Of a stretch of DNA of 64,000 nucleotides, positions 18,151-32,230 are shown in pieces (within the stretch, counting starts at the first letter, position 1; every line of letters starts with the position of its first letter). The notes under the pieces are model-generated. The model had not been told where the DNA came from, ran no database searches, and worked only from the letters and a program-made list of their open reading frames with translations. The translations under genes and the position numbers were made by a program. The stretch is taken from NCBI GenBank assembly GCA_045401115.1, contig CP174359.1:122288-186287 (forward strand), in the 5' to 3' direction. Origin of the DNA: Candidatus Phycocordibacter aenigmaticus. GTDB taxonomy: Bacteria > Patescibacteriota > Minisyncoccia > Phycocordibacterales > Phycocordibacteraceae.

Positions 18151-18211
18151 CCTGAAACAAAAAGAGTCCCTGCGGACTCTTTTTGTTTACAGGTGCGAGG
18201 CGCAGGCATAT

Positions 18212-18273
18212 TTCATTTTTGTTGTAATTCGTGACAAAAATGAAAAGCCGAGCCTAGACCAAGCACACTTAGT
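18212..18273 (+). repeat. tRNA-associated mosaic repeat, locus 1 (modules U1 hairpin + U2)
   Basis: ttcatttttgttgtaattcgtgacaaaaatgaa (10-bp stem palindrome) + aagccgagcctagaccaagcacacttagt. Homologous copies at 23818-23972, 31897-32003 (inverted), 19116-19162 and 32117-32230. Confidence 0.7.
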
Positions 18274-18385
18274 TCGCGCAGTGTTGCGAAGCAACACGAG
18301 TAGACTTAGTGATGGATGGTCCACGAAAAAAAGCTGCCAGCCTCATCACCAAAAAACAGCATCTCTCGATGCTGTTTTTTCTTAC

Positions 18386-18865
18386 CTATTCCTCCTCTTC
18401 TATCTGCACCTTTTCAAACTCCAGTGCACCACCGCGATTGAGATAAATAAGCACTAATCGCTCTCGGGTGAGTTCTGTAATCGCAAAGTACAGCGGACCT
18501 GAATCATCCTGCATTTCAAGATATACCATTCCAGCTTCTGTTGGATACGGAAATTCCTCAGGTGCATTTTCTGCAGTAAAAATTACCCAAGGACCGTTTG
18601 CTTGTTCTTCCCCTTCATAGCTATCCATATAACCACCGTTCTCATACATAGTTCGGACAAAATTAGGGTCTTCAGTTGACTGCCACACTCCGGCAAGCGA
18701 ACCAATAGAAAGTGGTGAGTCCATCGCTGTCTCATCATTTTCAGACGTTGTTTGTTGTACTTGTTGGTTTTCCTCATCAGAAACCTCTGATGGATTGTTT
18801 GCAAACAAATAGAAACCACCGGCAACAACAATAATTGCGATGATTGGAATAAGTATATTTTTCAT
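18386..18865 (-). CDS. Hypothetical secreted/membrane-anchored acidic protein
   Basis: 159 aa; N-terminal TM/signal MKNILIPIIAIIVVAGGFYLFA; sits between tRNA-associated repeats. Confidence 0.45.
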   Translation of the reverse strand: MKNILIPIIAIIVVAGGFYLFANNPSEVSDEENQQVQQTTSENDETAMDSPLSIGSLAGVWQSTEDPNFVRTMYENGGYMDSYEGEEQANGPWVIFTAENAPEEFPYPTEAGMVYLEMQDDSGPLYFAITELTRERLVLIYLNRGGALEFEKVQIEEEE

Positions 18866-18965
18866 AAAAATAATATTAATGTATATAAAACCAGTGTACC
18901 ACTATAGGAGAAAGGCGGGATGAGGGGTGTATAAAACGAAAGATCCATGTCTCGGAGGGAATGTT

Positions 18966-19062
18966 ACTGCTCAGTTTTGTGTCCTCTGTAGGATCGTCCC
19001 GGAATAGCGGACTTTTTACTGCACCCTGCGGGCACAGAAAAAGCTCTCGCTTTCCTGGATTT
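18966..19062. repeat. ~90-bp direct repeat copy 2 containing a degenerate tRNA-Arg(TCT) 3'-end-like segment (att-like)
   Basis: ttgtgtcctctgtaggatcgtcccggaatagcggactttt...aaaaagctctcgctttcctgga; ~85% identical to 19201-19295. Confidence 0.6.
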
Positions 19063-19115
19063 ACCCACACCTATTTTAAAAATTATTGTAGGAAATCTCA
19101 GTTGGTTTAAAATCA

Positions 19116-19162
19116 TGGTCACCCGTCACTAAGTATAATTGTTCGCCTGCGGCTCCAATTCT
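19116..19162. repeat. tRNA-associated mosaic repeat, locus 2 (inverted U4 + U5)
   Basis: ggtcacccgtcactaagtataattgttcgcctgcggctccaattcta; matches 32117-32165 and the inverse of 23956-23972. Confidence 0.65.
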
Positions 19163-19200
19163 ACAAAACAAAGTTTTGTTTCTTGTAGGAAATCTCACTG

Positions 19201-19295
19201 CTCTGCCTCCTGTTAGGATCGTCCCGGAATAGCGGACTTTTGTAGGCACGCTTCGCGCACCTAAAAAGCTCTCGCTTTCCTGGACGCGGCCTCGA
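19201..19295. repeat. ~90-bp direct repeat copy 1 with a tRNA-Arg(TCT) 3'-end-like segment (att-like)
   Basis: tctgcctcctgttaggatcgtcccggaatagcgg... The first 18 bp match the tRNA-Arg 3' end (tgcctcctgtaggaatcg at 19431-19448) with 1 indel. Confidence 0.6.
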
Positions 19296-19430
19296 ATGTT
19301 TTGCTCCGTGAATTCTCCGCAAAACATATACTCCGGCCGTTCGATTCCTAACGCAAACCAAGAAATTGGTCTGCTCAAAGGCACCTTTAAAGAAAAAATC
19401 GCCAACTGCTTGGCGATTTGTATCTTTGGG

Positions 19431-19502
19431 TGCCTCCTGTAGGAATCGAACCCACATCGAGTGGATAGAAGCCACTTGTTTTATCCATTAAACTAAGGAG
19501 GC
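19431..19502 (-). tRNA. tRNA-Arg (anticodon TCT)
   Basis: Revcomp GCCTCCTTAGTTTAATGGATAAAACAAGTGGCTTCTATCCACTCGATGTGGGTTCGATTCCTACAGGAGGCA; anticodon loop CTTCTAT. A downstream terminator-like hairpin aaaaaatcgccaactgcttggcgattt lies at 19394-19420. Confidence 0.85.
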
Positions 19503-19533
19503 TTTTATAGACTACCCCTTCCACGACAAAGGT

Positions 19534-19839
19534 TCAAGACGGGTCATTCATCTCAGGGCGTTGCACATTACCCGCTTCGTAGTTAGTCTCTCTTCGCTCA
19601 TACGTCTCTAACACTTCTTGCAGCTCAGTGCGCGGCATACGCGGCGTTGGTGCAGCGTCTCCTGAAAGCACATCATTCACTCCGTCTGCTTTAAAAGTAA
19701 AAAAGAAATTTACTGCAATAAGCGAAACGATAAGCACCAACACGACAACAATTCCAAGCAAACCATACCAATCACGAATCGGCGAAGGGGTGCCAAACTC
19801 AAGAATTGTGTTCCATATATTAATTATTTTTTTCATCAT
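19534..19839 (-). CDS. Hypothetical single-TM membrane protein, first gene of the pilM-N-O operon direction
   Basis: 101 aa; TM LLGIVVVLVLIVSLIAVNFFF. Confidence 0.4.
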   Translation of the reverse strand: MMKKIINIWNTILEFGTPSPIRDWYGLLGIVVVLVLIVSLIAVNFFFTFKADGVNDVLSGDAAPTPRMPRTELQEVLETYERRETNYEAGNVQRPEMNDPS

Positions 19840-19841
19840 AT

Positions 19842-20360
19842 CTATTCAAGCGGTTTTGCTTTAATAAAACGTGCAGTGAACGAACCAAACCACGCGCGCG
19901 CACCCGCATCTTCTAAAATACTTTGGTCAATACGCGTCGCTTGTGGTAATTTCTCTAATACTGCAATAAAGCCAATAATATTTTCGAAACGTCCTTCGAG
20001 CGAAAATGCAACATCAACACGTTCGTGATGTTTCCAGTCAGCTGACGCAATTAATACTTCAGAAATATTAATAGCCACTCCTTCTTCTACAGCCAGCCGT
20101 TCTAATGTTTCAATCACTGACACAACGTCATTTTCACCAATAACAAAATTATCGAGCCGGCTTCGTTCTTCTGTAACGTCATCTAAAAAAGTGCGGATTG
20201 AAGTTGCAGTTGCGTCCTGCCGCATTAACATTTGTGCATCTTCGGTCGCTACTTGTATCTGCTCTATCGAGCGAGAAACTCCACTATACAAAAAACCATA
20301 CCCTACAAAAAATATAACGGTCACAATACTCACAACAATAAGTGGGATAATATTTTTCAT
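19842..20360 (-). CDS. pilO: Type IV pilus assembly protein PilO-like
   Basis: 172 aa; N-terminal TM then coiled-coil/ferredoxin-like region; position after pilM-pilN. Confidence 0.6.
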   Translation of the reverse strand: MKNIIPLIVVSIVTVIFFVGYGFLYSGVSRSIEQIQVATEDAQMLMRQDATATSIRTFLDDVTEERSRLDNFVIGENDVVSVIETLERLAVEEGVAINISEVLIASADWKHHERVDVAFSLEGRFENIIGFIAVLEKLPQATRIDQSILEDAGARAWFGSFTARFIKAKPLE

Positions 20361-20362
20361 AA

Positions 20363-20899
20363 TTACTTTTTATATCTCATTTCTAGTGAAAACTCGGTGT
20401 TACTTTCACTGACTAACTGTGACACCGGTAGTGTCACACCACTTAAACGAGGACTTTCTCGTAAAGACTCTACAAACACCAAAAGATTTTGGCGCGTATT
20501 TGCGCTCCCTTTTAAAGCAACGGTCACTTCATCATTCTTATGAACCAAAGAAATATATGAAACAGCGATACCGCCGGTAATACGTTCATTAAACACATCG
20601 AAAAAATCTGCCATGACAGTGTCTGTGTGGTAGCTATTTAAAATAGTCACCCGTTCTTTTAATTCAGACAGTAGTGTCGTGGCATTTGTTCCTTCTTGTA
20701 AACCAACTGTCCCTTTAAGGGCATCACGATACCGTTCCACCGAAAGCGCTGTGTTCTGTGCAGAAAAAAAACTTGGCACTAACAGCACATTGCCAATAAA
20801 AAGCGCGACACTCATACCAGATAAAAGCAATATTCCGAAACGGATATAATACTGACGCATGAGTCGTTTCTTGTTTTTTTGCGGCAATAAATTAATCAT
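20363..20899 (-). CDS. pilN: Type IV pilus assembly protein PilN
   Basis: Begins MINLLPQKNKKRL, the canonical PilN N-terminus, followed by a TM. Confidence 0.75.
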   Translation of the reverse strand: MINLLPQKNKKRLMRQYYIRFGILLLSGMSVALFIGNVLLVPSFFSAQNTALSVERYRDALKGTVGLQEGTNATTLLSELKERVTILNSYHTDTVMADFFDVFNERITGGIAVSYISLVHKNDEVTVALKGSANTRQNLLVFVESLRESPRLSGVTLPVSQLVSESNTEFSLEMRYKK

Positions 20900-21987
20900 A
20901 GAAAATTCTTGTTATTACACGAACGCAGCGCAAGTCCTACGGTTGCCGCGTACTCTAAAGAAGTAGTATGAGGTAGTGCTGGAACATAACGGTCAAAAGA
21001 AAAAGCATTCGTCCATACATTACCAACCCGTACCGGCACATTAAGGCTCCGAGAAAGATATTCAGGCAGTCCTTTTAAATTAGCATTACCACCGACAAGA
21101 ATAATACTTTCCACTGGATGTGAAGTGAACTCTTTTTCATATGAAGAATCCCAATATGTCACATGTCGTTCCACTTCATCTTTAAATACGGAAATGGTAG
21201 CCATTAACGTTTCATACAGTTCTCGATTTTCCCCGCCTTCTAAAAAACCACGTGTATTTTTTATTTTTTCAGCTTCGTCCGCGTCAACATTAAAATGCTT
21301 CATAACCGCAGTGGTTAATGTTTCACCCCCTACATCAACGGTTACTGTAAAACCAACAACACCGTGTTCAAATATTGCAATACGTGTTGTCTTTTTTCCA
21401 AAATCAACCACCATCGTGGTGTGCTTCTTATCTTCTGGAGACAGCACCGCGCGTCCCAATGCTTGTGACTCCACTTCAAGTGAACGCAATGTGATCCCGG
21501 CATCATTAAAAACTTGCTGATACAACTCAATAACGCGTTTTGCATATGCCGTTACACTCACATGGGTCCCCTCTCCGTCACGTTGCACAACTTCAAAATC
21601 AAACACTACATCGTTCGGCGGAATCGGCACATGTGACTCGAGAGAAAATTCAACCGCTGCGCGCAAATTACGTTCACTACTTGGTACCCACGTTTGATAT
21701 AAATATGCTTTTCGTTCAGAAAGTGATGCGTGCGCAAAACGAATTCTTTCTCGTAGACGTAATGAACGGAGTAACTCAACCATTTTATCTGGTTGCTCAA
21801 TATCACCGTCAACAACCACTCCTTCGGCAAGCGGTGTCTCGCGATACGACTGAAGTACGCACCCTGCTCTCTGTTGTGCCAACACCATTGACTTAACTGA
21901 GTGTGAACCAATATCAATCCCCGCACCACTCATTGCAAGGTATTGTGGCGGTGGAAACATTCTTGCGGTACGCGAAAAGAATTGCAT
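20896..21987 (-). CDS. pilM: Type IV pilus assembly protein PilM (actin-like ATPase fold)
   Basis: 363 aa; GIDIGSHSVKSMVL ... VVDFGKKTTRIAIFEHG ... IILVGGNANLKGLPEYL. Confidence 0.8.
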   Translation of the reverse strand: MQFFSRTARMFPPPQYLAMSGAGIDIGSHSVKSMVLAQQRAGCVLQSYRETPLAEGVVVDGDIEQPDKMVELLRSLRLRERIRFAHASLSERKAYLYQTWVPSSERNLRAAVEFSLESHVPIPPNDVVFDFEVVQRDGEGTHVSVTAYAKRVIELYQQVFNDAGITLRSLEVESQALGRAVLSPEDKKHTTMVVDFGKKTTRIAIFEHGVVGFTVTVDVGGETLTTAVMKHFNVDADEAEKIKNTRGFLEGGENRELYETLMATISVFKDEVERHVTYWDSSYEKEFTSHPVESIILVGGNANLKGLPEYLSRSLNVPVRVGNVWTNAFSFDRYVPALPHTTSLEYAATVGLALRSCNNKNFL

Positions 21988-22051
21988 GTATACGTATTAT
22001 ACAGTTCTCTGTGCATTCACTACATACTTTGAATACACACTCCGTATTTTC

Positions 22052-22702
22052 TTACATGCGCAATAAAAGAAATACATTAAACGCGGCTAAAGCAATAACG
22101 CCGCTCATCAACGCAGTAACAATAGTCGTACGTGTAGCAATGCGTCCAAGACGTGGCAACACTGCAATACCAAACATATGTGTAATAGTCGCCACAATAC
22201 CGTAGCGAAGTGTGCGTCCAATAATAGAAGCGAGTATAAAAACAAAGAAATCAACGCGTAATATACCTGCCGCTAAAATAACAGGAGTATACGGTATTGG
22301 TGAAAACGCACCGACAAAAACTCCAACAAATGCATACCCTGCCAAAGCGATTTGGGCATGCGCGAGCGCTTCGCTCCACCCCAGCATCGCAATGAGCGGC
22401 GCAAACACTGTGTCGTACATCGCTATAATTGCTACATACAATGCCGCCGCACCAATGACACTAGTCGTAACTGCAACGAACACTAAGTAAGGGACCCGGC
22501 GTGGGTTAGCTAACACTAACAGTGCCAAGAAAATATCAGTGGGTACCGGCAAAATAACCGATTCAAAAAAAGAATACACACCGAGCCACCATACAGCGAC
22601 TTTTTTCTGTGCCAAACGACGGAACCACTCCCATGAATCACGCACATACAGCGTAATATCAATATCTGTTTTTTTGTTACCTGGATCGGTGTGCTGCATC
22701 AT
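22052..22702 (-). CDS. DedA/YqaA-family (SNARE-associated) membrane protein
   Basis: 216 aa; FFESVILPVPTDIFL motif; multiple TMs. Confidence 0.65.
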   Translation of the reverse strand: MMQHTDPGNKKTDIDITLYVRDSWEWFRRLAQKKVAVWWLGVYSFFESVILPVPTDIFLALLVLANPRRVPYLVFVAVTTSVIGAAALYVAIIAMYDTVFAPLIAMLGWSEALAHAQIALAGYAFVGVFVGAFSPIPYTPVILAAGILRVDFFVFILASIIGRTLRYGIVATITHMFGIAVLPRLGRIATRTTIVTALMSGVIALAAFNVFLLLRM

Positions 22703-23028
22703 TAATGAATTATACTTCCCGGCGGCACTGTTTGTGACACAGTAGGAATAGTCAACGATTCTCCTTCTCCGGTTACCAAAAGCATGCCTTGTGAGGTCAA
22801 CCCACGCAACACACGTGGCGCTAAGTTAGTTACAAACATAAACTGCCGCTCTACCAACTCTTTTGGATCGCAGTACTCAGCAATACCTGAAAGGATTTGA
22901 CGTGGTGTCTCTTCGCCAAGATCAACTTCGAGTCGTAGTAATTTATCGGCACTCGGCACGCGTTCAGCAACCAACACGGTTCCTACACGCAGCTCAACTT
23001 TTGCAAAATCATCAATTGAAATATTCAT
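22702..23028 (-). CDS. tRNA-binding domain protein (CsaA-like), second paralog
   Basis: FAKVELRVGTVLVAERVPSADKLLRLEVDLGEE...FMFVTNLAPR. Confidence 0.7.
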   Translation of the reverse strand: MNISIDDFAKVELRVGTVLVAERVPSADKLLRLEVDLGEETPRQILSGIAEYCDPKELVERQFMFVTNLAPRVLRGLTSQGMLLVTGEGESLTIPTVSQTVPPGSIIH

Positions 23029-23423
23029 ATATCACTCCTATTTAAGTAACTGTTAAGTATTATGGCGGCGGCATGCGCATCAACAACACCATCCCCTTTC
23101 CCTCGCACCCCTTCACTTGCTAAACGACGCGCCTCATGAGAAGTATAAAACTCCGGTTCAAAAAACACCGGGATAGCTGCTTTTTTTTGCAATGACGCAG
23201 CAAAAGCACGGATAGCATCCATCAATTCATTTTCCTCTCCGGTAAGTTTTTTTGACTCACCAATAACTACCCCTTCTACCTCCTCAGCTTCAATCAACGC
23301 AAGCACCTCATCAACAAGAGATGACGTATTGGACAACACAGTTTTAGGAAACGCCATCGTCCCGCGCGCATCGGAAACTGCTACGCCGACACGCTTCGTT
23401 CCATAATCTATACCAAGAAGTTT
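23025..23423 (-). CDS. ruvX: Holliday-junction resolvase-like YqgF/RuvX
   Basis: MKLLGIDYGTKRVGVAVSD motif. Confidence 0.85.
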   Translation of the reverse strand, partial: KLLGIDYGTKRVGVAVSDARGTMAFPKTVLSNTSSLVDEVLALIEAEEVEGVVIGESKKLTGEENELMDAIRAFAASLQKKAAIPVFFEPEFYTSHEARRLASEGVRGKGDGVVDAHAAAIILNSYLNRSDI

Positions 23424-23685
23424 CATTCCTTTGGGTGTCTGTATGTCGTGCTCAAACATAATTAAGATGCTTTCGTTCTTCAGTATACCGCAGGCAGAGT
23501 TACGGTATAAAAACTACCATTGGCTTTTCCTTAGGGGCGCTCTGTGGTAATCTCGTGGTACCCCGCTCCCGTAAGCAGAGCTTGCGTGAGCGTGTGGTAA
23601 GGCACTATGCTCCCGTAAGAAAATCTTTCGGGAGCTGCACTCGAAGGTCATGTGAGAGCACGCTCTCCCGCGACCCTTCTCGTTT

Positions 23686-23757
23686 GCTCCCGTAGTTTAA
23701 TGGATAAAATATCGGTTTGCGGTACCGACGCTCCAGGTTCGACTCCTGGCGGGAGCA
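23686..23757 (+). tRNA. tRNA-Arg with an unusual GCG anticodon
   Basis: GCTCCCGTAGTTTAATGGATAAAATATCGGTTTGCGGTACCGACGCTCCAGGTTCGACTCCTGGCGGGAGCA; anticodon stem TCGGT/ACCGA, loop TTGCGGT. The D-arm is shared with tRNA-Arg(TCT). Confidence 0.65.
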
Positions 23758-23817
23758 CAAAGACAAAAATCACCAACTGCTTGGTGATTTTTCGCTTTGT
23801 GCTAGGCGGAGGCATGT

Positions 23818-23972
23818 TTCATTTTTGTTGTAATTCGTGACAAAAATAAAAAGCCTTGAGTGTATTCGCTTCGCTCTCACGGGTAAAAGCTACCTGCTGT
23901 CGCTTTTACCGGGTCGAGCGCACTTAGTATTTTTAGAACGTAGTGAATAAAAATAGTTAGTGACGGGTGACC
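23818..23972 (+). repeat. tRNA-associated mosaic repeat, locus 3 (U1-U2-U3-U4, with a ~60-bp insertion in U2)
   Basis: ttcatttttgttgtaattcgtgacaaaaataaa...gagcgcacttagtatttttagaacgtagtgaataaaaatagttagtgacgggtgacc; reverse-complement homolog at 31897-32003. Confidence 0.7.
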
Positions 23973-24101
23973 ACAAAATTAAAACTGCCTGAAGAGGTGG
24001 TTTTTTAATAGTGATCCCGTCAGGAGTCGAACGGGAAAGGGATCGGGAAAACACGTTGTTTCCCCGTGGAGGAAGTGGTGACGATTGAGTAAATCAAAGA
24101 A

Positions 24102-24878
24102 TCAAGCTGTCTTTGCTGTACTCATTAAGTCACTAAGTCTTATTTCCTTTTGTTTCAAACGACCGTCTTGATGAAAACCAGTAATTGCATTTATGGTTTC
24201 ATTTTGATCAATCTGTTCAAGATATTCTTTTGCGTACAAATTAAGTGCTGTAAGAAGTCCGTCGCCCATATCATGAGAAGTAACTTCTACAACAATCTTA
24301 TTCTGGCCATTTATTCTCTCTTGTTGGAAATATTTAACTGTTCGTAGTGAATCAAGTCTTTCAAAAAACAAATGTATGGTTCCATTTCTTGTTGTTAACA
24401 AAGGGGTTTCATTATGATGACACAAATTGCGTATATCCATTTCGATTTTAAACCAATCCTCATTTTCAATATATCTAGTACATAAAGTGCCAGTAATCCT
24501 ATCATCAATTACTTTGAGCAAATCGTAAATACTATGAACAGTATTTAAGTACGCCTCCATAGAGGCCATCCATCTATGCTCAAAACGATAAGGGTTTATA
24601 TTACGTCTCATGTTCTGATTAAGTACTTTCCTTTCTAGTTTCTGCATCTCACCAACCTGGTATCTCATTTGTTCGACTCTTTTATTTAAGTCTTGCATGA
24701 TGTATTTCATATCTTCGTTACCACCACGACGACGGTTAGTAACTAAATTTTGACCAAAATAATAAAAGAGGTCTAGAAATGTAAACTGGTCTTTTTTTAT
24801 AAAACTATAAATACTAATATCAGGAACTAAAACAACTAGTCTTTGCCCATCTGTGGTTGTTCCAATTATTTTTTTCAT
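24102..24878 (-). CDS. Hypothetical cytoplasmic protein (258 aa) on a low-GC islet
   Basis: Long ORF in an AT-rich (~30% GC) segment; no recognisable motif. Confidence 0.5.
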   Translation of the reverse strand: MKKIIGTTTDGQRLVVLVPDISIYSFIKKDQFTFLDLFYYFGQNLVTNRRRGGNEDMKYIMQDLNKRVEQMRYQVGEMQKLERKVLNQNMRRNINPYRFEHRWMASMEAYLNTVHSIYDLLKVIDDRITGTLCTRYIENEDWFKIEMDIRNLCHHNETPLLTTRNGTIHLFFERLDSLRTVKYFQQERINGQNKIVVEVTSHDMGDGLLTALNLYAKEYLEQIDQNETINAITGFHQDGRLKQKEIRLSDLMSTAKTA

Positions 24879-24962
24879 ATCTATATTCTATAATAAATAA
24901 CCTCAGCAACAGCCCGACATGGGGGGGGTAGGAATCCCGCTTCCCGAGGCTGGCGCCTAATT

Positions 24963-25538
24963 TTAAAAACAGACCAGAGAGCCAAGTAGTGAAAATGTAC
25001 CTAAAATCATCAAGATATAAACTATCTGAGAATAAATTTGAGGTGCTTTTCGGTCACTGTCATTTTTAAAAAGATTGATGGACTTTTTATCAGTTTCATT
25101 AAGGTTAATAAAATCCTGTTTACTAATTTTTTTAGTCTCAAGCCAATTATTATATAGAATTAAAAACTTCTCATTTCTTGTGTTGTAAAAGTCGGAATAT
25201 TTTTTACGCTCTGCCTCAATATCATTAAATTCAGCTTGGTATTTCTGTTGCACCCACCACAACCCATAGAATAGCCCTCCGAGAAGCAAGACTTCCCCCG
25301 CCATGAATAAAGACATAGTTTTTACAAAGTCTAAGGCTGTAAAACCAAAACCCGCAATTAAACCAATTACCCCAATCACGGTTGTGGCAAATCCTATTGA
25401 TTTGAAATAGACATCTAACTGCTTCGTGCCTAAATCGCCAAATATTTCACTTTGTAATCGAAAATTACTTGAACCAAACGATTCATAAAATTCTTTAAAT
25501 TCTTCATCATTTAGACTAATTTTATCTTCTGTGTTCAT
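24963..25538 (-). CDS. Hypothetical membrane protein (191 aa, ~3 TM) on a low-GC islet
   Basis: TM segments TTVIGVIGLIAGFGFTAL, MSLFMAGEVLLLGGLFYGLWW and a C-terminal IVYILMILGTFSLLGSLVCF. Confidence 0.45.
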   Translation of the reverse strand: MNTEDKISLNDEEFKEFYESFGSSNFRLQSEIFGDLGTKQLDVYFKSIGFATTVIGVIGLIAGFGFTALDFVKTMSLFMAGEVLLLGGLFYGLWWVQQKYQAEFNDIEAERKKYSDFYNTRNEKFLILYNNWLETKKISKQDFINLNETDKKSINLFKNDSDRKAPQIYSQIVYILMILGTFSLLGSLVCF

Positions 25539-25600
25539 AATCTAATTCTACCGCAACACAAGAAAATATCTGCCAACAAGCTCCCTCGAGCCAACTCTAT

Positions 25601-25627
25601 GTGACGGAGGGAGTGGGATTCACTGCA
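25601..25627. repeat. Direct repeat of the tRNA-Ser 3' end (att-like)
   Basis: gacggagggagtgggattcactgcacc versus tRNA 25749-25771 tgcggagggagtgggattcgaaccc. A more degenerate copy ccgtggaggaagtggtgacgatt lies at ~24057-24079. Confidence 0.6.
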
Positions 25628-25748
25628 CCGCTACATTTTCTAATCGCTTCACTCAAGAAAATCTACGCTCCCAGCACCTTGCTTCTCATCCCACTGCTCC
25701 TTATATAAAACAAAAGAACTGGCGCGAAGCCAGTTCTTTTGTTTAATG

Positions 25749-25835
25749 CGGAGGGAGTGGGATTCGAACCCACGGACCCCGTTAAGGGTCTCTGGTTTTC
25801 AAGACCAGCGCCTTCGACCACTCAGCCATCCCTCC
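25749..25835 (-). tRNA. tRNA-Ser (anticodon TGA), long variable arm
   Basis: Revcomp GGAGGGATGGCTGAGTGGTCGAAGGCGCTGGTCTTGAAAACCAGAGACCCTTAACGGGGTCCGTGGGTTCGAATCCCACTCCCTCCG. Confidence 0.85.
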
Positions 25836-25846
25836 TTTCGTAAACC

Positions 25847-26119: not shown

Positions 26120-26127
26120 TCTCTATT

Positions 26128-26625
26128 TTACAAACCAATAGCGCGGGCAATATTGTCGGTAATAGTTTCAAGTGAATCAATCTCGTCAATACTTCTATTC
26201 TTTAGTTCAGTGCGTATTAGACGATAATCCACATCTTTCAGAGGAATAGATGTAGTTCCTAATAACGTATCGGTGGCAATCACTAAAGCAGGCACCGGCT
26301 CATCTTCTTCGTGAATAGCAAACGCGCGTATTTTATTCCATGGAATAATTTGAGCATCAATATGTACTCCCGCATCACTCAACGCATAGCTGTGCATCCT
26401 ATCCGGTCGTGTACCCGCAAGCATAATGGTAAAGCCGCCAAGTACGATCAGCACTCCTAAAAGAGTGTTACCTAAAATAATACTCGATAACGCAGCTCCC
26501 ACAGAAATAATACCGACTGTCCAGTACCAGTTAGAAGTCTTTGGTGCACATCCATCTTCCTTTGCTCGCCACGCTACGTTTTTTTCCATACGTATATTGT
26601 AACGTGTGTTTTTCTCTTGCACCAT
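26128..26625 (-). CDS. Hypothetical membrane protein (2 TM near the N-terminus)
   Basis: 165-aa ORF. Confidence 0.4.
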   Translation of the reverse strand: MVQEKNTRYNIRMEKNVAWRAKEDGCAPKTSNWYWTVGIISVGAALSSIILGNTLLGVLIVLGGFTIMLAGTRPDRMHSYALSDAGVHIDAQIIPWNKIRAFAIHEEDEPVPALVIATDTLLGTTSIPLKDVDYRLIRTELKNRSIDEIDSLETITDNIARAIGL

Positions 26626-26655
26626 TAAAAAACCCGACAGTCGTCGGGTTTTTTA

Positions 26656-26919
26656 TTATGCTGCTGATTTTTTAAGTTGTGCTGAAAGGCGAGATTTTTT
26701 TCGAGAACCGGTGTTCTTTTTGATAATGCCGCGTTTTACTGCTTTATCGATTGCCTTCTGAGCGGTAGATAGTGCAGCATTTTGTGTCGCACGATCTTTG
26801 CCAAGAGCTGCTGTAGCCTCTTTTACCGCTGACGCCATAGCACGTCGTACGCGTAGATTAAAAACACGCTTCCGTTCCTGAGAGCGAATTGCTTTCTGTG
26901 CGCTTTTGATAGTAGCCAT
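26656..26919 (-). CDS. rpsT: Ribosomal protein S20
   Basis: MATIKSAQKAIRSQERKRVFNLRVRRAM... Confidence 0.85.
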   Translation of the reverse strand: MATIKSAQKAIRSQERKRVFNLRVRRAMASAVKEATAALGKDRATQNAALSTAQKAIDKAVKRGIIKKNTGSRKKSRLSAQLKKSAA

Positions 26920-27001
26920 ATGTAGAGACTAGACTAGCGCATTATTCCCCTATAATCAAGCATATATAGAGGGACTCATATGATGCTGATACAATGGGTC
27001 C

Positions 27002-27580
27002 ATGATTGGCTCACTCAACGGAACTATAAAGGGTATTATCCGCGACACCGTTATTGTAGAGGTGAACGGTATTGGCTACGGCGTATACTGCCCTACCTCG
27101 ACCCTCGCCCGCGTGAGCGACGGCGACCCACTCTCCCTGTGGACCTATCTTGCTGTACGTGAAAATGCCCAAGACCTCTTCGGTTTTGAGACCCGTGATG
27201 AACTCCAATGGTTTGAACTACTCCTCACTGTTTCAGGTATTGGTCCGCGTTCAGCACTTTCTATTTTAAACAGCGCTGATATCGCCACCCTTGAATCAGC
27301 AATTGCCCATAACGACCCGGGCGTGTTAGCGGGCGCATTTGGTGTAGGCAAAAAAACATCTGAAAAAATTGTACTCGAATTACGTGAAAAAGTTGAGATT
27401 AAAAATACCGATAGCGCAGGTAAAGAGGTCGGCGGTGACGGCGATGTATTCGAAGCGTTAGTTGCCCTGGGCTACTCAGCAAAAGAAGCACGTGACACCA
27501 CACGCGCGCTTCCTAAAAATATTGAAGGTACTGAGGCACGCTTGCGTGAAGCATTGCGTATTGCCTCGCGTGGTAAGTAA
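27002..27580 (+). CDS. ruvA: Holliday junction DNA helicase RuvA
   Basis: MIGSLNGTIKG...VNGIGYGVYCP; helix-hairpin-helix LLTVSGIGPRSALSIL. Confidence 0.9.
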   Translation: MIGSLNGTIKGIIRDTVIVEVNGIGYGVYCPTSTLARVSDGDPLSLWTYLAVRENAQDLFGFETRDELQWFELLLTVSGIGPRSALSILNSADIATLESAIAHNDPGVLAGAFGVGKKTSEKIVLELREKVEIKNTDSAGKEVGGDGDVFEALVALGYSAKEARDTTRALPKNIEGTEARLREALRIASRGK

Positions 27581-27592
27581 TTTACATTATAT

Positions 27593-28870
27593 ATGTATCG
27601 TTTTGTTTCATTCATTGTTGAGATCCTCAAAAAAATCCTGCCGGCGCCAATCGTGCGACCGTTCCTCAAGCCGTACCATTTCATAATGGCGCTTTCCTTT
27701 GCGATTATCCACGGTTTCCCCGCAAAACGCATGGTCGTACTTGGTGTCACCGGCACTAAAGGGAAATCGACAGTTTCTGAGATGCTGTTTGCCATACTAC
27801 GCGCAGCAGGTCACACTACGGCACTCGCCTCTACTATCCGCTTTGCCGTTAACGATGAATCAAAGCCAAACCAATTTAAAATGACCATGCAAGGACGTGG
27901 ACACCTTCAAGACTTTTTAGGTTCTGCACGTCGGCGTGGCGCAACGCACGCCGTAGTTGAAATCACCTCTGAAGGTACACGTGAATTTAGAAATGCATTT
28001 TTATTTCTTAATGGACTCATTGTCACCAATATTGCCCGAGAACATATTGAGTCACATGGTTCATTTGAAAATTATGTTGCGGCAAAACGCAGTATCGTCA
28101 ACACGCTTGAACAATCACCTAAACAAGATCGAGTGCTGGTTGCCAATGGCGCTAATGAACACACAAAACCATTTTTAGATGCGAATGTACCACATACCTT
28201 CCCTTTTTCACTCTCTGAACTCGATGATGTACATGCTACTGAAACCAGTGTTTCTTTTTCATACAAAAACACAGCGTTTACACTTCCTCTTCCAGGACTC
28301 TTCAACGCAGAAAACGCACTCGCTGCTATTAAAATCACTGAACAATTTGGTGTTGACCTTGAAACTGCACAAAAAGCATTAGCGCACCTCGAACCTGTTC
28401 GCGGTCGTGTTGAACGTGTTGAAGCAGGACAATCATTCGGTGTCATTGTCGACTATGCACATACCCCTGACTCACTTGAAGCGCTATATGGCGCATTCCC
28501 TGATAGACGAAAAGTATGTGTACTCGGTAACACTGGTGGTGGGCGCGATACATGGAAACGTCCACTTATGGGTAGTATTGCCGACAAAGCCTGTGATGTA
28601 GTCATCCTCACCAATGAAGACCCCTACGATGAGGATCCAATGAAAATCGTTCAAGAAATGGCAGAAGGCATGGCGCGTCCTCCAATTATTGAAATGGATC
28701 GACGCACAGCGATACGACGTGCTTATGCTGAAGCAAAAGAAGGTGATGTCGTGCTCATCTCTGGAAAAGGTACTGACCCGTATATTATGGGAGCAGACGG
28801 CACAAAAACACCATGGAGTGATGCAAGAGTTGCTCATGAAGAACTTACCGAGTTCTTAAAGCAAAATTAA
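27593..28870 (+). CDS. murE: Mur ligase family protein (UDP-N-acetylmuramoyl-tripeptide synthetase, MurE-like)
   Basis: VLGVTGTKGKST P-loop; DYAHTPDSLEAL; ...VRGRVERVE. Confidence 0.7.
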   Translation: MYRFVSFIVEILKKILPAPIVRPFLKPYHFIMALSFAIIHGFPAKRMVVLGVTGTKGKSTVSEMLFAILRAAGHTTALASTIRFAVNDESKPNQFKMTMQGRGHLQDFLGSARRRGATHAVVEITSEGTREFRNAFLFLNGLIVTNIAREHIESHGSFENYVAAKRSIVNTLEQSPKQDRVLVANGANEHTKPFLDANVPHTFPFSLSELDDVHATETSVSFSYKNTAFTLPLPGLFNAENALAAIKITEQFGVDLETAQKALAHLEPVRGRVERVEAGQSFGVIVDYAHTPDSLEALYGAFPDRRKVCVLGNTGGGRDTWKRPLMGSIADKACDVVILTNEDPYDEDPMKIVQEMAEGMARPPIIEMDRRTAIRRAYAEAKEGDVVLISGKGTDPYIMGADGTKTPWSDARVAHEELTEFLKQN

Positions 28871-28901
28871 CTTACATACTGAGTAACTTTTATACACACT
28901 T

Positions 28902-29924
28902 TTGAAAATGCTAAAATCAATGCATATGTTTAAACGCACTCGACACGCACGCGGCGCAGCCGGAGCTGACCTTATATTTTTTATTTTCTTTCTCATCGTC
29001 CTCGGTATCGTCTGGGCGCTCACGGGAGGTCCTGGAAGAGACATCTCTCGTGAAGGCGCTTTTATCAACCCCCCTTTCCCTCTTGGGAGCGGTGACGCAT
29101 ATAGTGTGCCAGGAGTTTCAATACCACGCGTGAACACTGAACGTGACACACACACCACTACAAATAATGATGTGAAAAAAGAAACAAATACACTCCAAGA
29201 TATTATTGCGCGTATCCGCGGAGAACAGACCGGCATTTCACCAGCAGGCATATCTCCTTATGCAGGACTCGTTACCTTTGAAAGGGGACGTCCTAAAAAC
29301 AGCAGTGCCGAGACCGAGTATTTAAAAATCGAAACACAAAGCGCTGTCGAGGGTCGCATTGTTATTTCCGACTGGCGCGTTGAATCAGCGATTTCCCTCC
29401 GCGGCACCACACTCGGCGACGCTGCACACCTTCCCTATTCAGGACAAGTGAACACAGAATCACCGGTCGCGCTTGGTCCTGACATAACCATATTTATAGT
29501 ATCCGGCCGTTCACCCATCGGCGCATCATTCCGTGTAAATACCTGTACTGGGTACTTTGCGCAATTCCAAGAATTTACCCCCGACCTACGTGAAGAGTGC
29601 CCTCATCCTGAGGACGAACTTAAACGCATCGCGAATGTTGACTTCATTCCCAATGACGCATGTATCAACTTTGTAGAGACCCGCGGTCGTTGTACCTTCA
29701 CCACCGGCAGTATTCCTCAACAAGTCGGCAGTGCATGTCAAAGTTTTATTCTGAACGATTTAACCTACAACGGCTGTGTCGACGCGCATAAAAACGAAAC
29801 TGATTTCTATAAAAATGAATGGTACATCTATCTCGATCGCGACGAAGAGTTGTGGAACAATTCAAATGACCGTATCCGTTTACTGGATGAAAACGGTCTC
29901 ATAGTAGACGAACTCAGTTATTAA
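28902..29924 (+). CDS. Hypothetical secreted protein with a Cys-rich C-terminal region
   Basis: 340 aa; N-terminal TM LIFFIFFLIVLGIVWALTG; eight Cys in the last 120 aa. Confidence 0.45.
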   Translation: MKMLKSMHMFKRTRHARGAAGADLIFFIFFLIVLGIVWALTGGPGRDISREGAFINPPFPLGSGDAYSVPGVSIPRVNTERDTHTTTNNDVKKETNTLQDIIARIRGEQTGISPAGISPYAGLVTFERGRPKNSSAETEYLKIETQSAVEGRIVISDWRVESAISLRGTTLGDAAHLPYSGQVNTESPVALGPDITIFIVSGRSPIGASFRVNTCTGYFAQFQEFTPDLREECPHPEDELKRIANVDFIPNDACINFVETRGRCTFTTGSIPQQVGSACQSFILNDLTYNGCVDAHKNETDFYKNEWYIYLDRDEELWNNSNDRIRLLDENGLIVDELSY

Positions 29925-29941
29925 AGTACGAACGCAGTACG

Positions 29942-30415
29942 TTAACTTCTATTTGAAAAATGGAAGAGTGCAATCGCGCCAGCGTTTGAAACATTAAGCG
30001 ACTCTTTTTTTCCTTTCATCGGAATCTCCACGACAGCATCGGCGAGTGCACATACTGTCTCTGAGACACCATCTATTTCATTTCCCACAATAAGAGCAGT
30101 ATCTCCTGCGGCAGTATACGCAGCAAGAGACACCGCGCCTGGCGTCTGCTCAAGCGCAACCACAGTGACTCCTTCTTCTTTAAGAGAAGTGATAACGGTG
30201 TCTATATCGCCCGACTCCCACGCAAGGGACTCCTCGGCACCGAGCGCCACTTTAGCAATACGCATATCTTTTCTCCCAAATCGATCAACAGGGTGTGGAG
30301 TATAACCGGTCAAAAATACTTTCTTCACTCCCATCCCGTCGGCTGTGCGAAACAATGAACCTACATTATGGGTACTGCGTACATCATTAATAATTAAATA
30401 GAGCGTGTTATCCAT
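29942..30415 (-). CDS. SpoU/TrmH-family RNA 2'-O-methyltransferase
   Basis: 157 aa; VGSLFRTADGMG...GNEIDGVS...ESLNVSNAGAIALF motifs. Confidence 0.8.
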   Translation of the reverse strand: MDNTLYLIINDVRSTHNVGSLFRTADGMGVKKVFLTGYTPHPVDRFGRKDMRIAKVALGAEESLAWESGDIDTVITSLKEEGVTVVALEQTPGAVSLAAYTAAGDTALIVGNEIDGVSETVCALADAVVEIPMKGKKESLNVSNAGAIALFHFSNRS

Positions 30416-30447
30416 ACAACGTTTTCATTTTCAGTCTCTCAATTTCC

Positions 30448-30834
30448 ATGTATAAGGGTTATAATACCTGTATGGAAAGTATTTTCCCAGACATTCTCTT
30501 TTTAGGACCATATTTCGGTCCTATGATTTTACGTACTGCCGTTGCGGCATACTTCTTACTATACGCGTACAGTTTCTTGCGACAAAAAACTGCGCGAAGT
30601 AGCATGCTCGCCTTTAATGAGGCAGTTATCGGTATCCTTCTTATGTTGGGTATACTCACTCAATTGGTCACACTCGTGGGAATATTCGCTCTCGTTATGA
30701 GAAAAGTGATACTTGGCGCTCAAGCACCAAAACAAGGATGGGCGGAGACCATTCTCGTTATTGGCGTTCTGCTGGCACTCGTCATCACCGGCGCCGGTTT
30801 CTCGCCATTCCCTTTCTCAGACCTGCCATATTAA
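30448..30834 (+). CDS. Small hypothetical membrane protein (DoxX-like topology, 3-4 TM)
   Basis: 128-aa ORF. Confidence 0.35.
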   Translation: MYKGYNTCMESIFPDILFLGPYFGPMILRTAVAAYFLLYAYSFLRQKTARSSMLAFNEAVIGILLMLGILTQLVTLVGIFALVMRKVILGAQAPKQGWAETILVIGVLLALVITGAGFSPFPFSDLPY

Positions 30835-30903
30835 ATAACCCAAACAAAAAACAGCCCTGGTAATAGGGCTGTTTTTTGTTGATATGTGGTAACTATCGAT
30901 ATA

Positions 30904-31449
30904 TCACTCGCCTCGAACAAAACATTCCCGGCATCGCGCTTCATAGTGATACGTTCCATCGTCAGGCACCACTGATGGAAGTCCGACGCGCACAGGCCCC
31001 TCTCCATTGAGAATTTGTGTAAATCGCGCGTCATAGGCATGACACACTTCGCACACTGAGTTTTTCATGATGACTGTATCGGGACGATATTCAAAAAGCC
31101 GCTTAACCATCGGCATCATATGTCCCTGATAATCAAGATCCAATCCACTAATGAATACATCTTTTCCAGCGCGCACCCACTGCTCAATAACCGCCACATC
31201 CGCTTCTTCAAACATATGCACCTCATCAACACCAAGCACATCAAATGTATCCGACACATCACCAAGCGAGTCGACTACGAGTGCTTCAGCATCAACACCG
31301 GCACGCGAAGAAATAGATGACTCGCGTACATTCCGCCGCGGTTGAATATACGCAATCTTTTTTTGCGCAAACTTAAACGGCTCAACGCGAGCAATAAGCT
31401 CAAGCGACTTTCCGCTTTTCATAGGTCCAGTGATGAGTACAAAAGTCAT
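30904..31449 (-). CDS. tdk: Thymidine kinase
   Basis: MTFVLITGPMKSGKSLELI P-loop; C-terminal zinc ribbon CEVCH...CRECF. Confidence 0.88.
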   Translation of the reverse strand: MTFVLITGPMKSGKSLELIARVEPFKFAQKKIAYIQPRRNVRESSISSRAGVDAEALVVDSLGDVSDTFDVLGVDEVHMFEEADVAVIEQWVRAGKDVFISGLDLDYQGHMMPMVKRLFEYRPDTVIMKNSVCEVCHAYDARFTQILNGEGPVRVGLPSVVPDDGTYHYEARCRECFVRGE

Positions 31450-31535
31450 GTCTCCTACAGAATAACACTCACTTCTTGCGGTGTTCCTAATAGAAAAACC
31501 CACCGAACTGGTGGGTTTTAAGTGAACTTTAATCC

Positions 31536-31799
31536 CTATTTAACCCTTTTGAGGAATGCATACATCCCTTTCCCCACTCCAAATACAAGCATTGCAATAA
31601 GTGCACCATCTACCATATCGTCGATTATAGGAAATTCAGAATCAAGAATGAAATTATCATGCTCTGTCCGAACAAGTTCACCAAGCACCGGCTCTGTTTC
31701 ATCAAGCACATTTAGAGCGGTTTGATGTTTTGAATGCCCAATAGCACCAAGAGCGGCGCCGGCAATACCAACGTGAACAAAGTCTTTAAGTTTTTCCAT
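31536..31799 (-). CDS. Hypothetical small protein
   Basis: 87-aa ORF adjacent to tRNA-associated repeat locus 4. Confidence 0.3.
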   Translation of the reverse strand: MEKLKDFVHVGIAGAALGAIGHSKHQTALNVLDETEPVLGELVRTEHDNFILDSEFPIIDDMVDGALIAMLVFGVGKGMYAFLKRVK

Positions 31800-31896
31800 A
31801 GGTGAAGATTAAAACATATATGCATATTATTGTCAATACACCCTACCCCCCTCTTTATTAAACGGCTCAAGGGGTGAGCCGTTTAATTTTGTCATA

Positions 31897-32003
31897 TCGT
31901 CACCCGTCACTAAGTATTTTTATTCACTACGTTCTAAAAATACTAAGTGCGCTTGACCACGGCTCGGCTTTTCATTTTTGCCATAAACTACAGCAAAAAT
32001 GAA
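31897..32003 (-). repeat. tRNA-associated mosaic repeat, locus 4 (U1-U2-U3-U4 in minus orientation)
   Basis: Revcomp reads ttcatttttgctgtagtttatggcaaaaatgaaaagccgagccgtggtcaagcgcacttagtatttttagaacgtagtgaataaaaatacttagtgacgggtgac. Confidence 0.7.
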
Positions 32004-32116
32004 ACATGCATTCGACATTGTTTTGTTACGACTGAAAGGAGTTAGAAAACAAGAAGTGCCCTTGTGTTGCGCCTCGGACAAAGCGAAAAATCGCAAAGCA
32101 GTTTGCGATTATCGTG

Positions 32117-32230
32117 TCGTCACAAGTTACTAAGCATAATTGTTCACCTTCGGTTCCAATTCTGCTAAGTACTCGCGACCCCGGCTCGGCTTTATTTTGC
32201 AGCCAGGAACTGGCAGCTGCAAAACAATAT
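32117..32230. repeat. tRNA-associated mosaic repeat, locus 5 (U4-like + U5 + U2-like + alternative hairpin)
   Basis: tcgtcacaagttactaagcataattgttcaccttcggttccaattct...gaccccggctcggcttt + attttgcagcc...gctgcaaaac. Confidence 0.6.

Follow-up and report, generated by a model that had tools for sequence, protein, structure and literature searches.

Genomic islands that target tRNA genes, such as tycheposons, are the closest described systems to the elements reported here. Tycheposons use tRNA genes that include Ser-TGA and Arg-TCT, are flanked by partial tRNA sequences and accrete outward (bioRxiv 10.1101/2020.12.28.424599). Here, we analyzed a 64-kb stretch of Patescibacteria chromosome (Candidatus Phycocordibacter aenigmaticus, contig CP174359.1; hereafter ‘the window’), in which small repeats lie just 3’ of the tRNA genes. 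They belong to a family of non-coding units of ~65–220 nt that is widespread in Patescibacteria and apparently undescribed, the searchable full-text literature holding no description of such units. Patescibacteria have tiny genomes with few recognized mobile elements, are competent and depend on DNA uptake. With moderate confidence, we read the repeats as non-autonomous, cassette-like insertion units that are anchored on the tRNA 3’ end and recognized in single-stranded form.

Alongside housekeeping genes (for ArgRS, SHMT, ThyA, PilM/N, a MurE-like ligase, RuvA/B, Pol I, DnaA/DnaN and YidC), the window contains seven tRNA genes, as called by ARAGORN and Rfam. Non-coding units lie 3’ of six of them, on the same strand; these are all the tRNAs with a free 3’ flank. 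An earlier inspection of the DNA, the sequence-only reading, had described a mosaic repeat family accompanying every tRNA gene, which is correct except for tRNA-Leu: this seventh tRNA has no unit, and tRNA-His begins 39 nt further on. The five loci and five modules (U1 to U5) of that reading were all recovered where it had placed them, as were the terminator hairpins shared by both tRNA-Arg genes (35 nt, 86% match in the repeat search) and the hairpin pair AAACGGCTCA..TGAGCCGTTT, which has near-twins at 17829-17854 and 31860-31884. (These two hairpins each sit directly upstream of a minus-strand open reading frame, ORF, and are otherwise unlike the units.) The list was incomplete, however: it had overlooked the units behind tRNA-His (Table 1) and tRNA-Ser (25622-25747), a second tRNA-Arg-GCG unit (24009-24076), the larger extent of the tRNA-Arg-TCT array, and the direct copies of tRNA 3’ ends, decayed or intact, at the far side of several units.

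Similarities among the tRNA flanks are far above chance. When each tRNA 3’ flank was searched against the full 64 kb with BLASTN, E values among the flanks were 1e-12 to 1e-21, and no further copy turned up elsewhere in the window. The repeat search aligned 18193-18249 with 23799-23855 (57 nt, 93%), 23912-23971 with 31899-31958 (inverted; 60 nt, 97%) and 18201-18273 with 31942-32014 (inverted; 73 nt, 82%), and grouped 19115-19144, 31896-31925 and 32116-32145 as one repeat family.

On folding, U1 to U5 proved to belong to a single ordered unit. A common plan is shared by copies A, C and D, and copy B follows the same plan with one inserted hairpin. H0 resembles a terminator hairpin and, through its outer stem, pairs with the final 3–6 bases of the tRNA; it precedes H1, which holds U1 and part of U2, and H2, which holds U3 or U5 plus U4. 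H1 is built from AGGCGGAGGC ... U1 hairpin ... GCCGAGCC, while H2 runs from GGGGTCGCGAG-ACTTAGT through an A/T stem and a GGAGC..GCGAAC tip to ACTTAGTGAC..GTGACC. The earlier notion of modules in varying order and orientation did not hold up: the order H0-H1-H2 is fixed, and every copy is oriented as its tRNA, so that inversions merely mirror the tRNA strand. Neither are U3 and U5 separate modules; they represent alternative, covarying versions of a single hairpin tip.

Fold z-scores of copies A, C and D ranged from -4.8 to -5.8, with the sense strand 6–17 kcal/mol stabler than the antisense strand. The sense strand is G-rich and has recurrent GNRA-like GCGAA/GTGAA loops, and a terminator-like hairpin lies 3’ of every H1-H2. 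By intrinsic-terminator criteria, H0 qualifies as one. Neither H1 nor H2 has a T run, and both show conservation and covariation from genome to genome, which speaks against ordinary intrinsic terminators. A motif, (G)CGTAG(C/T)GAA, recurs in hairpin tips and unit starts across types (window 23937-23948; 2960-3075 of locus L130; 7779-7795 of L003).

To place the window units in a wider context, we compared them with 13 pilM loci from genome collections and 80 from metagenomes, which together with the window amount to ~0.97 Mb, all from Patescibacteria (the candidate phyla radiation, CPR). A covariance model of H1 plus H2 (R1), searched over 0.91 Mb from 69 of the sources, returned 34 unit copies. 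Thirty-one of these lay 42–337 nt downstream of a tRNA on the same strand—flanks that make up ~5% of the search space—most commonly at an offset of 46–50 nt, the length of H0. nhmmer searches with two unit types produced the same pattern (27 of 28 matches tRNA-linked). The proposed tie of small non-coding units to tRNAs was thereby borne out, and modules away from tRNA genes, which would have spoken against it, accounted for three of the 34 covariance-model matches and one of the 28 nhmmer matches. Behind tRNA-Arg(TCT), the unit recurs at an offset of 46–50 nt in at least ten genomes whose PilM proteins are 30–70% identical to that of the window, and L114 carries the U5/U4 modules (nhmmer E 2e-14) at 36% PilM identity. 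Besides the window’s G type, body types include a T type ending in GGGTACTGnnnCTGTAAG, a W type and others, and unit types are kept across Saccharibacteria-like and Paceibacteria-like genomes.

In an alignment of 32 distinct sequences, which was fitted to the covariance model, all 24 modeled pairs covary; 95.7% of cells are paired, compared with 64% upon shuffling and 33–44% with slid partners, and one G·U pair is conserved in 22 of the sequences. As an independent check, ten copies from six genomes were aligned with plain MAFFT; in the resulting RNAalifold structure, 16 of 24 pairs showed compensatory changes. Of 29 whole units, which span all types, 28 had a tRNA-sense strand with a better predicted fold than the antisense strand (mean -9.1 kcal/mol); with the terminator removed, the same was true of 24 of 25 units (53 versus 18 G·U pairs). 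Compensatory changes and G·U pairs thus maintain the predicted hairpins, and do so on the tRNA-sense strand alone. From this strand-specific folding and the G·U pairs, the conserved object is, as modeled, a single strand of tRNA polarity, either RNA or single-stranded DNA (ssDNA).

The tRNA flanks also bear marks of insertion. A census of 235 CPR tRNAs for direct copies of the tRNA 3’ end (16 or more matching bases out of 18) within 400 nt downstream identified 30 tRNAs with such a copy, 57–295 nt away and mostly at 130–165 nt; an upstream control returned paralogous tRNAs only, and no repeat-bounded insert longer than 295 nt was present at this threshold. The tRNA itself is intact, and the duplicated part is left downstream. 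In most types it extends from the T-loop to the discriminator (~19–25 nt); in the window type it comprises the last 3–9 nt only, for example GACA after each tRNA-Lys unit. Overall, the flanking repeats vary from 3 to 55 nt and are always tRNA 3’-end sequence. With respect to target-site duplications, for which the sequence-only reading had suggested a check, these tRNA copies do flank the units, while none of short, fixed length was found. A typical unit reads: tRNA 3’ part, terminator hairpin, inverted copy of the tRNA 3’ part (7–17 nt exact, often split by H1), long hairpin, type-specific tail, tRNA 3’ part again, and the presumed original terminator.

Related genomes supply the corresponding states. 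The tRNA-Leu of L005 is an empty site for the first unit of the L003 tRNA-Leu, syntenic relatives with ~70% PilM identity have the same tRNAs and mostly lack the window’s units, and the same body types are found at different tRNAs and in different genomes. (A contig with a 91%-identical PilM ends before the tRNA flanks and is not usable for fine-scale insertion mapping.) Units also stack: three different types behind the tRNA-Lys of L130, two identical 153-nt window-type units behind the tRNA-Arg-TCT of L096, and four identical 78-nt tandem units behind the tRNA-Arg-GCG of L083 (800-1105, minus strand), each consisting of 66 nt of hairpin sequence and a 12-nt tRNA-end copy, TACCGGGAGCAC. A 64-nt unit in L009 is related to the latter. 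Nine tRNAs carry at least two downstream copies of their 3’ end, and the tRNA-proximal unit appears to be the youngest in at least two loci.

When the inverted segment was compared with 225 distinct tRNA ends, its own tRNA came first for 8 of 27 units and usually stood among the top ten. In the Arg-GCG unit of L130, a close relative of the Lys unit, the inverted segment is Lys-like, yet perfect 19-nt Arg-GCG repeats flank the unit. Judging by this single clear case, the flanking repeat appears to derive from the target rather than to be supplied by the element. In the related T-type units at the tRNA-Val and tRNA-Leu of L003, each inverted segment matches its own tRNA, suggesting that unit lineages may stay with one tRNA species for long periods. 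We considered whether the inverted segment is a generic T-loop complement and rejected this: it follows the local T-loop variant (TTCGATT, TTCAAGT or TTCAAAT) and is neither generic nor always rewritten.

The three R1 matches that were not beside a tRNA gene proved informative, as they led to gene-carrying versions. In L096, tRNA-Ser is followed by a 2.9-kb segment, an H1-H2 unit and a tRNA-Ser 3’ copy that has decayed. Encoded on the segment are a methyltransferase, a cyclase of a cyclic oligonucleotide-based antiphage signaling system (CBASS; PADLOC 1e-96) and a two-transmembrane (2TM; SLATT) effector (4e-67), so that the CBASS is complete. A perfect 217-nt inverted repeat (5181-5397 and 8263-8479), starting inside the last 8 nt of tRNA-Ser, brackets the segment; it may represent a segment that can invert, a fold-back duplication of recent origin or an artefact of assembly. 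L086 (553-1737) has 1.4 kb with two ORFs, which lack a Pfam or PADLOC match, between tRNA-Lys and a solo tRNA-Lys 3’ fragment, and two units follow. A third case, from a separate, relaxed repeat search, is L007 (14240-15493), where the gene for an Mrr-like restriction nuclease has a T-type unit on one side and another tRNA-Leu 3’ copy on the other. Pfam detected no recombinase among the CBASS and Mrr cargo ORFs, and the L086 ORFs belong to no family.

In the window, the unit arrays of tRNA-Val and tRNA-Arg-TCT, which are convergent, flank a 159-aa ORF (18386-18865) whose homologs elsewhere adjoin ftsW/murG; in L008, the two tRNAs are only ~50 nt apart. The ORF may represent imported cargo. Two further ORFs of 258 and 191 aa (24102-25538), with no Pfam or PADLOC match, occupy the interval from the tRNA-Arg-GCG units to the downstream tRNA-Ser 3’-end copy; the close relatives L009 and L012 have a single ORF of ~150 aa at this position. 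The features of the window are compiled in Table 1.

Table 1 Units, tRNA genes and accompanying hairpins in the window (DR2, direct repeat; R1, covariance model of H1 plus H2; D and I numbers, direct and inverted repeats of the repeat search)
Feature	Position	Strand	Basis and remarks
tRNA-His(GTG), anchor of W-type unit	14510..14584	-	ARAGORN, Rfam
W-type unit behind tRNA-His	14345..14509	-	Inverted tRNA 3’-part copy 14464-14488 (I15: 25 nt, 92%); W hairpin 14420-14463 (matches 24033-24076 and L012 15773-15826)
DR2: decayed direct copy, tRNA-His T-loop to 3’ end	14326..14344	-	Read from sequence; intact, 37 nt, in L012 and L082
Presumed original terminator beyond tRNA-His DR2	14302-14320	-	Read from sequence
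tRNA-Val(TAC)	18078..18152	+	ARAGORN, Rfam
H0 of unit A, terminator-like hairpin	18153..18197	+	Outer stem pairs with last 6 nt of tRNA-Val (CGCACC/GGTGCG); design recurs behind tRNA-Lys (I3)
Unit A: H1 (U1+U2), H2 (U4-like tail)	18198..18321	+	R1 78.9 bits, E 3e-17; fold z-score -5.55
Putative tRNA-Val 3’-end remnant (CCTCATC..ACC) and presumed original terminator	18341..18380	+	Sequence reading, inference
Array behind tRNA-Arg(TCT)	18979..19427	-	Repeats D3 (71 nt, 87%), D6, D17; BLASTN
H0 of tRNA-Arg(TCT) array	19393-19427	-	Repeats, BLASTN
Anti-3’-end and anti-T-loop segments of tRNA-Arg(TCT) array	19376-19388, 19339-19352	-	
H1-like hairpin of tRNA-Arg(TCT) array	19287-19338	-	
Two ‘F2’ hairpins of tRNA-Arg(TCT) array	19221-19285, 18996-19059	-	
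Decayed tRNA-Arg(TCT) 3’-end copies, one after each F2 hairpin	19203-19220, 18979-18995	-	
Partial unit E (U5+U4), between the two F2 hairpins	19115-19163	-	
tRNA-Arg(TCT)	19429..19502	-	ARAGORN, Rfam
tRNA-Arg(GCG)	23686..23758	+	ARAGORN, Rfam
H0 of unit B, stem extending into tRNA-Arg(GCG) 3’ end	23759..23803	+	I20: 23754-23776 pairs with 23781-23803 (23 nt, 91%)
Unit B: H1 (U1, U2), extra inserted hairpin, H2 (U3, U4)	23804..23972	+	R1 87.1 bits, E 2e-19; fold
Second tRNA-Arg(GCG) unit, W-type	23981..24076	+	Repeats I11, I6; BLASTN to 14420-14474 and L012
Terminator-like hairpin of this unit	23981-24006	+	
Inverted tRNA-Arg-like 3’ part of this unit	24009-24032	+	
W hairpin of this unit	24033-24076	+	
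tRNA-Ser(TGA)	25748..25835	-	ARAGORN, Rfam
126-nt unit and closing direct copy behind tRNA-Ser	25604..25747	-	H0 25707-25744; anti segment 25681-25700; direct tRNA-Ser 3’-end copy 25604-25621 (17/18 bases)
tRNA-Lys(CTT)	32287..32360	-	ARAGORN, Rfam
H0 (32243-32285) and unit D (32118-32240; H1, H2 with U5-type tip)	32118..32286	-	R1 98 bits; unit D fold z-score -5.80, sense strand 16.7 kcal/mol stabler than antisense
Second tandem unit behind tRNA-Lys	31898..32118	-	H0 32077-32118 (hairpin core atcgcaaactgctttgcgat, identical in L096), 60-nt spacer, unit C
Unit C: H1, H2 with U3-type tip	31898-32017	-	R1 102.1 bits
Closing terminator hairpin of tRNA-Lys array, AAACGGCTCA..TGAGCCGTTT	31860..31884	-	Near-twin at 17829-17854

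The surroundings of the tRNA genes show further rearrangements. The 24 nt upstream of tRNA-Val together with its first 24 nt are duplicated 122 nt upstream (17932-18101; 48 nt, 98%), and between the copies (17932-18053) lies a scrambled pseudo-tRNA-Val with a variable-loop/T-stem piece, an anticodon loop and an inverted anticodon arm, which looks like a fold-back or template-switch rearrangement. The syntenic tRNA-Val, tRNA-Arg-TCT and tRNA-Ser differ in direction between L008, L009 and L012 (~70% PilM identity) and the window; it thus seems that, in this lineage, tRNA genes and their surroundings often undergo local inversion. Elsewhere in the window, dnaA appears as two overlapping ORFs (49557-50327 and 48980-49672), which could reflect a frameshift, a sequencing error or a real split; dnaN is its neighbor, and a flattening of the GC-skew curve near 52 kb agrees with a replication origin. 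At 53280-55088, a TraG/VirB4-like P-loop ATPase is encoded among family-less ORFs and may be part of a secretion or DNA-transfer apparatus.

Anchoring on tRNAs, flanking duplication, an empty site, stacking and cargo-bearing versions together make an insertion process the best reading, and the strand-specific covariation suggests that whatever recognizes the units sees a folded single strand. On this reading, units would be added one after another at the tRNA 3’ end, always in the orientation of the tRNA, with the tRNA 3’ end serving as a reusable attachment repeat. The units would be non-autonomous: machinery encoded outside them would recognize the folded ssDNA or RNA strand, in the way that integron attC sites or the CTX-phage attP hairpin are recognized. 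In CTX-phage integration, a folded single-stranded attP mimics the target. Natural transformation may plausibly help the units spread between genomes, the tRNA gene and its downstream copy acting as two homology arms.

The sequence-only reading had likewise favored small non-autonomous mobile elements, and presence or absence between related genomes, tandem accretion and duplicated flanking tRNA sequence agree with it; the labels it attached fare less well. ‘MITE-like’ (miniature inverted-repeat transposable element) is at odds with the lack of terminal inverted repeats and of a short fixed target duplication: right-end tails are type-conserved, left ends differ within a type and are not the inverse of the tails, and the flanking repeats are variable and tRNA-derived, not fixed at 2–10 bp. 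‘Decayed integrative elements’ fits poorly with the absence of an integrase (235 tRNA sites, ~0.97 Mb), the narrow sizes and the strand-specific structural selection on the hairpins; the last argues against double-stranded attachment (att) arms, which would not show such selection. No autonomous copy carrying a transposase was found among the 40 window ORFs tested or beside 249 tRNAs, and no intact copy carrying an integrase among these ORFs or, by tblastn with XerD, in the related loci.

Several observations weigh against insertion units. Pfam detected no recombinase, transposase or reverse transcriptase among the 40 window ORFs, and tblastn with XerD yielded no integrase over the ~0.97 Mb or in the three cargo islands. 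The acting enzyme is thus hypothetical, and because neither enzyme nor intermediate was seen, our confidence in insertion units is moderate. All comparison loci were sampled around one gene, pilM, and the tRNA association holds for these loci. Both boundaries of the duplicated tRNA segment vary (18–55 nt), so homology-driven or template-switch insertion fits as well as site-specific recombination. Simple transposition offers no explanation for the Val and Leu units of L003, whose inverted segments match their own tRNAs. Finally, the same unit type sits 46–50 nt behind tRNA-Arg(TCT) in at least ten genomes, and hairpins are intact where the flanking repeat has decayed; host function fits these two findings as well as mobility does.

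A more specific form of the idea would be an integron- or CRISPR-like cassette acquisition system in CPR bacteria, with the tRNA 3’ end as the repeat duplicated at each insertion, attC-like hairpins, an enzyme acting in trans, and cassettes that are empty or carry CBASS or restriction nucleases. We consider this doubtful. An attC-like hallmark is present—an imperfect palindrome that folds on one strand, with structure conserved over sequence—and amounts to a functional resemblance only. By inspection, the integron core boxes RYYYAAC...GTTRRRY are not present (junctions read, for example, GTAAG|TTCRA and GTGAC|CGATT). Neither intI, attI nor Pc was found beside the arrays, which start at the tRNA gene and have no tyrosine recombinase nearby. 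A CRISPR array proper was rejected: its ‘repeats’ would be pieces of tRNA 3’ ends, its ‘spacers’ would be conserved structured units that recur in different genomes, and no cas genes occur among the tested ORFs.

The main and serious rival, for which there is real support, holds that H1-H2 and the other types are functional RNAs: small structured RNAs or cis-acting modules of the tRNA 3’ flank, made by read-through or release from the tRNA, copied by local duplication and kept by selection. Proposed roles comprise tRNA 3’-end processing, transcript stability or termination, mimicry of the tRNA acceptor and antisense pairing. The sequence-only reading had raised a module of the tRNA 3’ flank as its alternative. 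This is a possibility we hold tentatively. It would account well for the strong covariation, the conserved G·U pair and the structure specific to the tRNA-sense strand, as well as for the G-rich sense strand with its recurrent GNRA-like loops and the terminator-like hairpin after every H1-H2. The fixed offset behind tRNA-Arg(TCT) and a conservation far above neutral expectation, as in the U5/U4 modules of L114, point the same way. However, a terminator-like hairpin parts the unit from the tRNA, and there is no convincing promoter between H0 and H1; the matches before H1 are weak and differ from copy to copy (TTTACA-17-TATTGT in unit D, for example). Nor would a host RNA be expected to be missing at the same tRNAs in close relatives or to come as several unrelated types stacked at one tRNA, and the perfect flanking tRNA duplications and the cargo between tRNA and module are signatures of insertion. 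Rfam offers no family: at gathering score, Rfam 15 returned tRNAs only (window, three related loci and the L096 island), and at permissive E values it added sub-threshold matches to miRNA and leader models, which are hairpin noise. There was no match to a ribozyme family either, and the GGGTACTGnnnCTGTAAG tail lacks, by eye, the hammerhead CUGAUGA core.

Less probable, in our judgment unlikely, is that the units have no function and arise as by-products at tRNA and terminator hairpins, either from replication template switching or from recombination, homologous or illegitimate. A nascent strand would leave after the tRNA 3’ end, copy the unit of another locus and return at the T-loop, with no dedicated enzyme involved. 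Such a course would leave a target-derived duplicate with variable boundaries, as observed (left in or near the conserved T-loop, right 0–36 nt past the tRNA), and the direct-inverted-direct layout of tRNA 3’ parts is the outcome expected of two fold-back switches. The retained Lys-like inverted segment in the L130 Arg-GCG unit, the direct and inverted pieces of the scrambled partial tRNA-Val, the L096 inverted duplication, which pivots on the tRNA-Ser 3’ hairpin, and the flips of tRNA orientation between relatives are all in keeping with it. Passive copies should decay, yet compensatory evolution and the conserved G·U pair persist at 30% PilM identity, and the conservation of unit types across Saccharibacteria-like and Paceibacteria-like genomes argues against functionless by-products as well. 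A primer-binding site of retroviral type, or reverse transcription primed by a tRNA, was rejected: the inverted segment complements genomic bases past the discriminator, not CCA, and no CCA occurs at the unit junctions.

That the units are worn-down att arms of integrase-carrying prophages, integrative and conjugative elements (ICEs) or tycheposon-like islands is decidedly unlikely. The hallmark of tRNA-integrating elements is there, in that direct repeats of the tRNA 3’ part with a left boundary in the T-loop (30 of 235 tRNAs) constitute the classical signature of tyrosine integrases, and three loci have gene cargo. Ser-TGA and Arg-TCT are also tycheposon targets, where successive integrations push older elements outward (bioRxiv 10.1101/2020.12.28.424599). 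Missing from the 0.97 Mb, by tblastn with XerD, is the companion hallmark, an integrase inside the element beside the att site, and the cargo islands have none either. Worn islands would further be at variance with the absence of repeat-bounded inserts above the census maximum, with the narrow insert-size mode, and with strand-specific covariation including G·U pairs, which is unexpected for double-stranded arm sites. Pattern scans of 2.9 million viral contigs gave chance coding-sequence matches only, without tRNA context, on which grounds a phage or plasmid origin was also rejected.

Finally, kinship with non-autonomous HUH transposons—palindrome-associated transposable elements (PATEs) of the IS200/IS605 type, repetitive extragenic palindromes (REPs) and bacterial interspersed mosaic elements (BIMEs) mobilized by REP-associated tyrosine transposases (RAYTs), or IS91-like rolling-circle elements—is very improbable: strand-specific hairpins, mosaic hairpin composition (BIMEs, too, are mosaic) and the insertion of several types into the T-loop at GGTTC| or G|TTC (IS91 targets GTTC/CTTG) recall them, but target duplications of 18–55 nt are foreign to such families, the units show no conservation at their left ends, and a search confined to the window found no Y1/Y2 transposase or TnpB among its 40 ORFs. 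PATEs of the IS200/IS605 type and REP/BIME repeats were discarded individually for the long tRNA-derived duplications and for want of a Y1 transposase or RAYT among the tested window ORFs. A TnpB/IscB guide RNA, with a scaffold and then the downstream tRNA copy as guide, was rejected: it would also target the intact tRNA gene at the same locus, and no nuclease gene was seen.

If the units are indeed insertion cassettes, tRNA 3’ ends in many sampled CPR genomes are marked as sites of repeated insertion, with no integrase in sight and sometimes with defense cargo. The finding suggests either that genes are acquired by an unrecognized route or that tRNA-linked RNAs include a new class, a new acquisition mechanism standing a minority chance, and bears on how Patescibacteria gain genes, phage-defense genes included. 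On the practical side, the units cause assembly breaks and local inversions beside tRNA genes in CPR metagenome bins. The covariance model, the unit boundaries and the loci with empty, filled and cargo-bearing sites provide resources for tests.

How, then, do the units compare with known systems? Like the short, hairpin-rich mosaics of REP/BIME, REPIN and MITE type, they are non-coding, intergenic, terminator-adjacent and non-autonomous; unlike these, they sit strictly at tRNA 3’ ends in one orientation, with tRNA-derived direct and inverted segments, and have neither terminal inverted repeats nor a short fixed target duplication. With small RNAs from tRNA 3’ external transcribed spacers and with tRNA mimics they share the 3’ trailer site and a predicted RNA that is structured, G-rich and able to pair with or mimic the acceptor/T-arm, whereas here a terminator-like hairpin intervenes between tRNA and unit, units are gained, lost and stacked, and the family is known from DNA alone.

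Integron attC cassettes and clusters of attC sites lacking integrases (CALINs) also form arrays at one reusable point, with one-strand imperfect palindromes in which structure is conserved over sequence. Their cassettes are likewise small, some being ORF-less and some carrying defense genes, and the seemingly youngest unit in the present arrays is the one closest to the attachment point, the tRNA, in at least two loci. The units differ in attaching at a tRNA 3’ end rather than attI, in the absence of RYYYAAC/GTTRRRY boxes and of a detectable IntI, and in an inter-cassette repeat of 18–25 nt of tRNA versus 7 nt. An integrated mobile element of the CTX-phage type (integrative mobile element exploiting Xer, IMEX) has a comparable layout of target copy, cargo, inverted target copy, loop and target copy, as would be expected where a single strand folds an inverted pair to mimic its target; in our case, the target is a tRNA and not dif, the units are ~50 times smaller, and the inverted copy is often 7–17 nt and sometimes split by a hairpin.

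Closest are the tRNA-targeting islands—prophages, ICEs, tycheposons and their integrase-less derivatives, the cis-mobilizable elements (CIMEs)—which use the tRNA 3’ site, leave the tRNA intact, have partial-tRNA flanks, push older insertions outward and can carry defense cargo. Set against them are units of 65–220 nt, non-coding and without an integrase nearby, that have covarying single-strand hairpins in place of double-stranded arm sites and a duplicated segment that appears target-derived. What appears new here is a class of miniature non-coding units with no integrase nearby, a single-strand structure and a repeat seemingly taken from the target itself.

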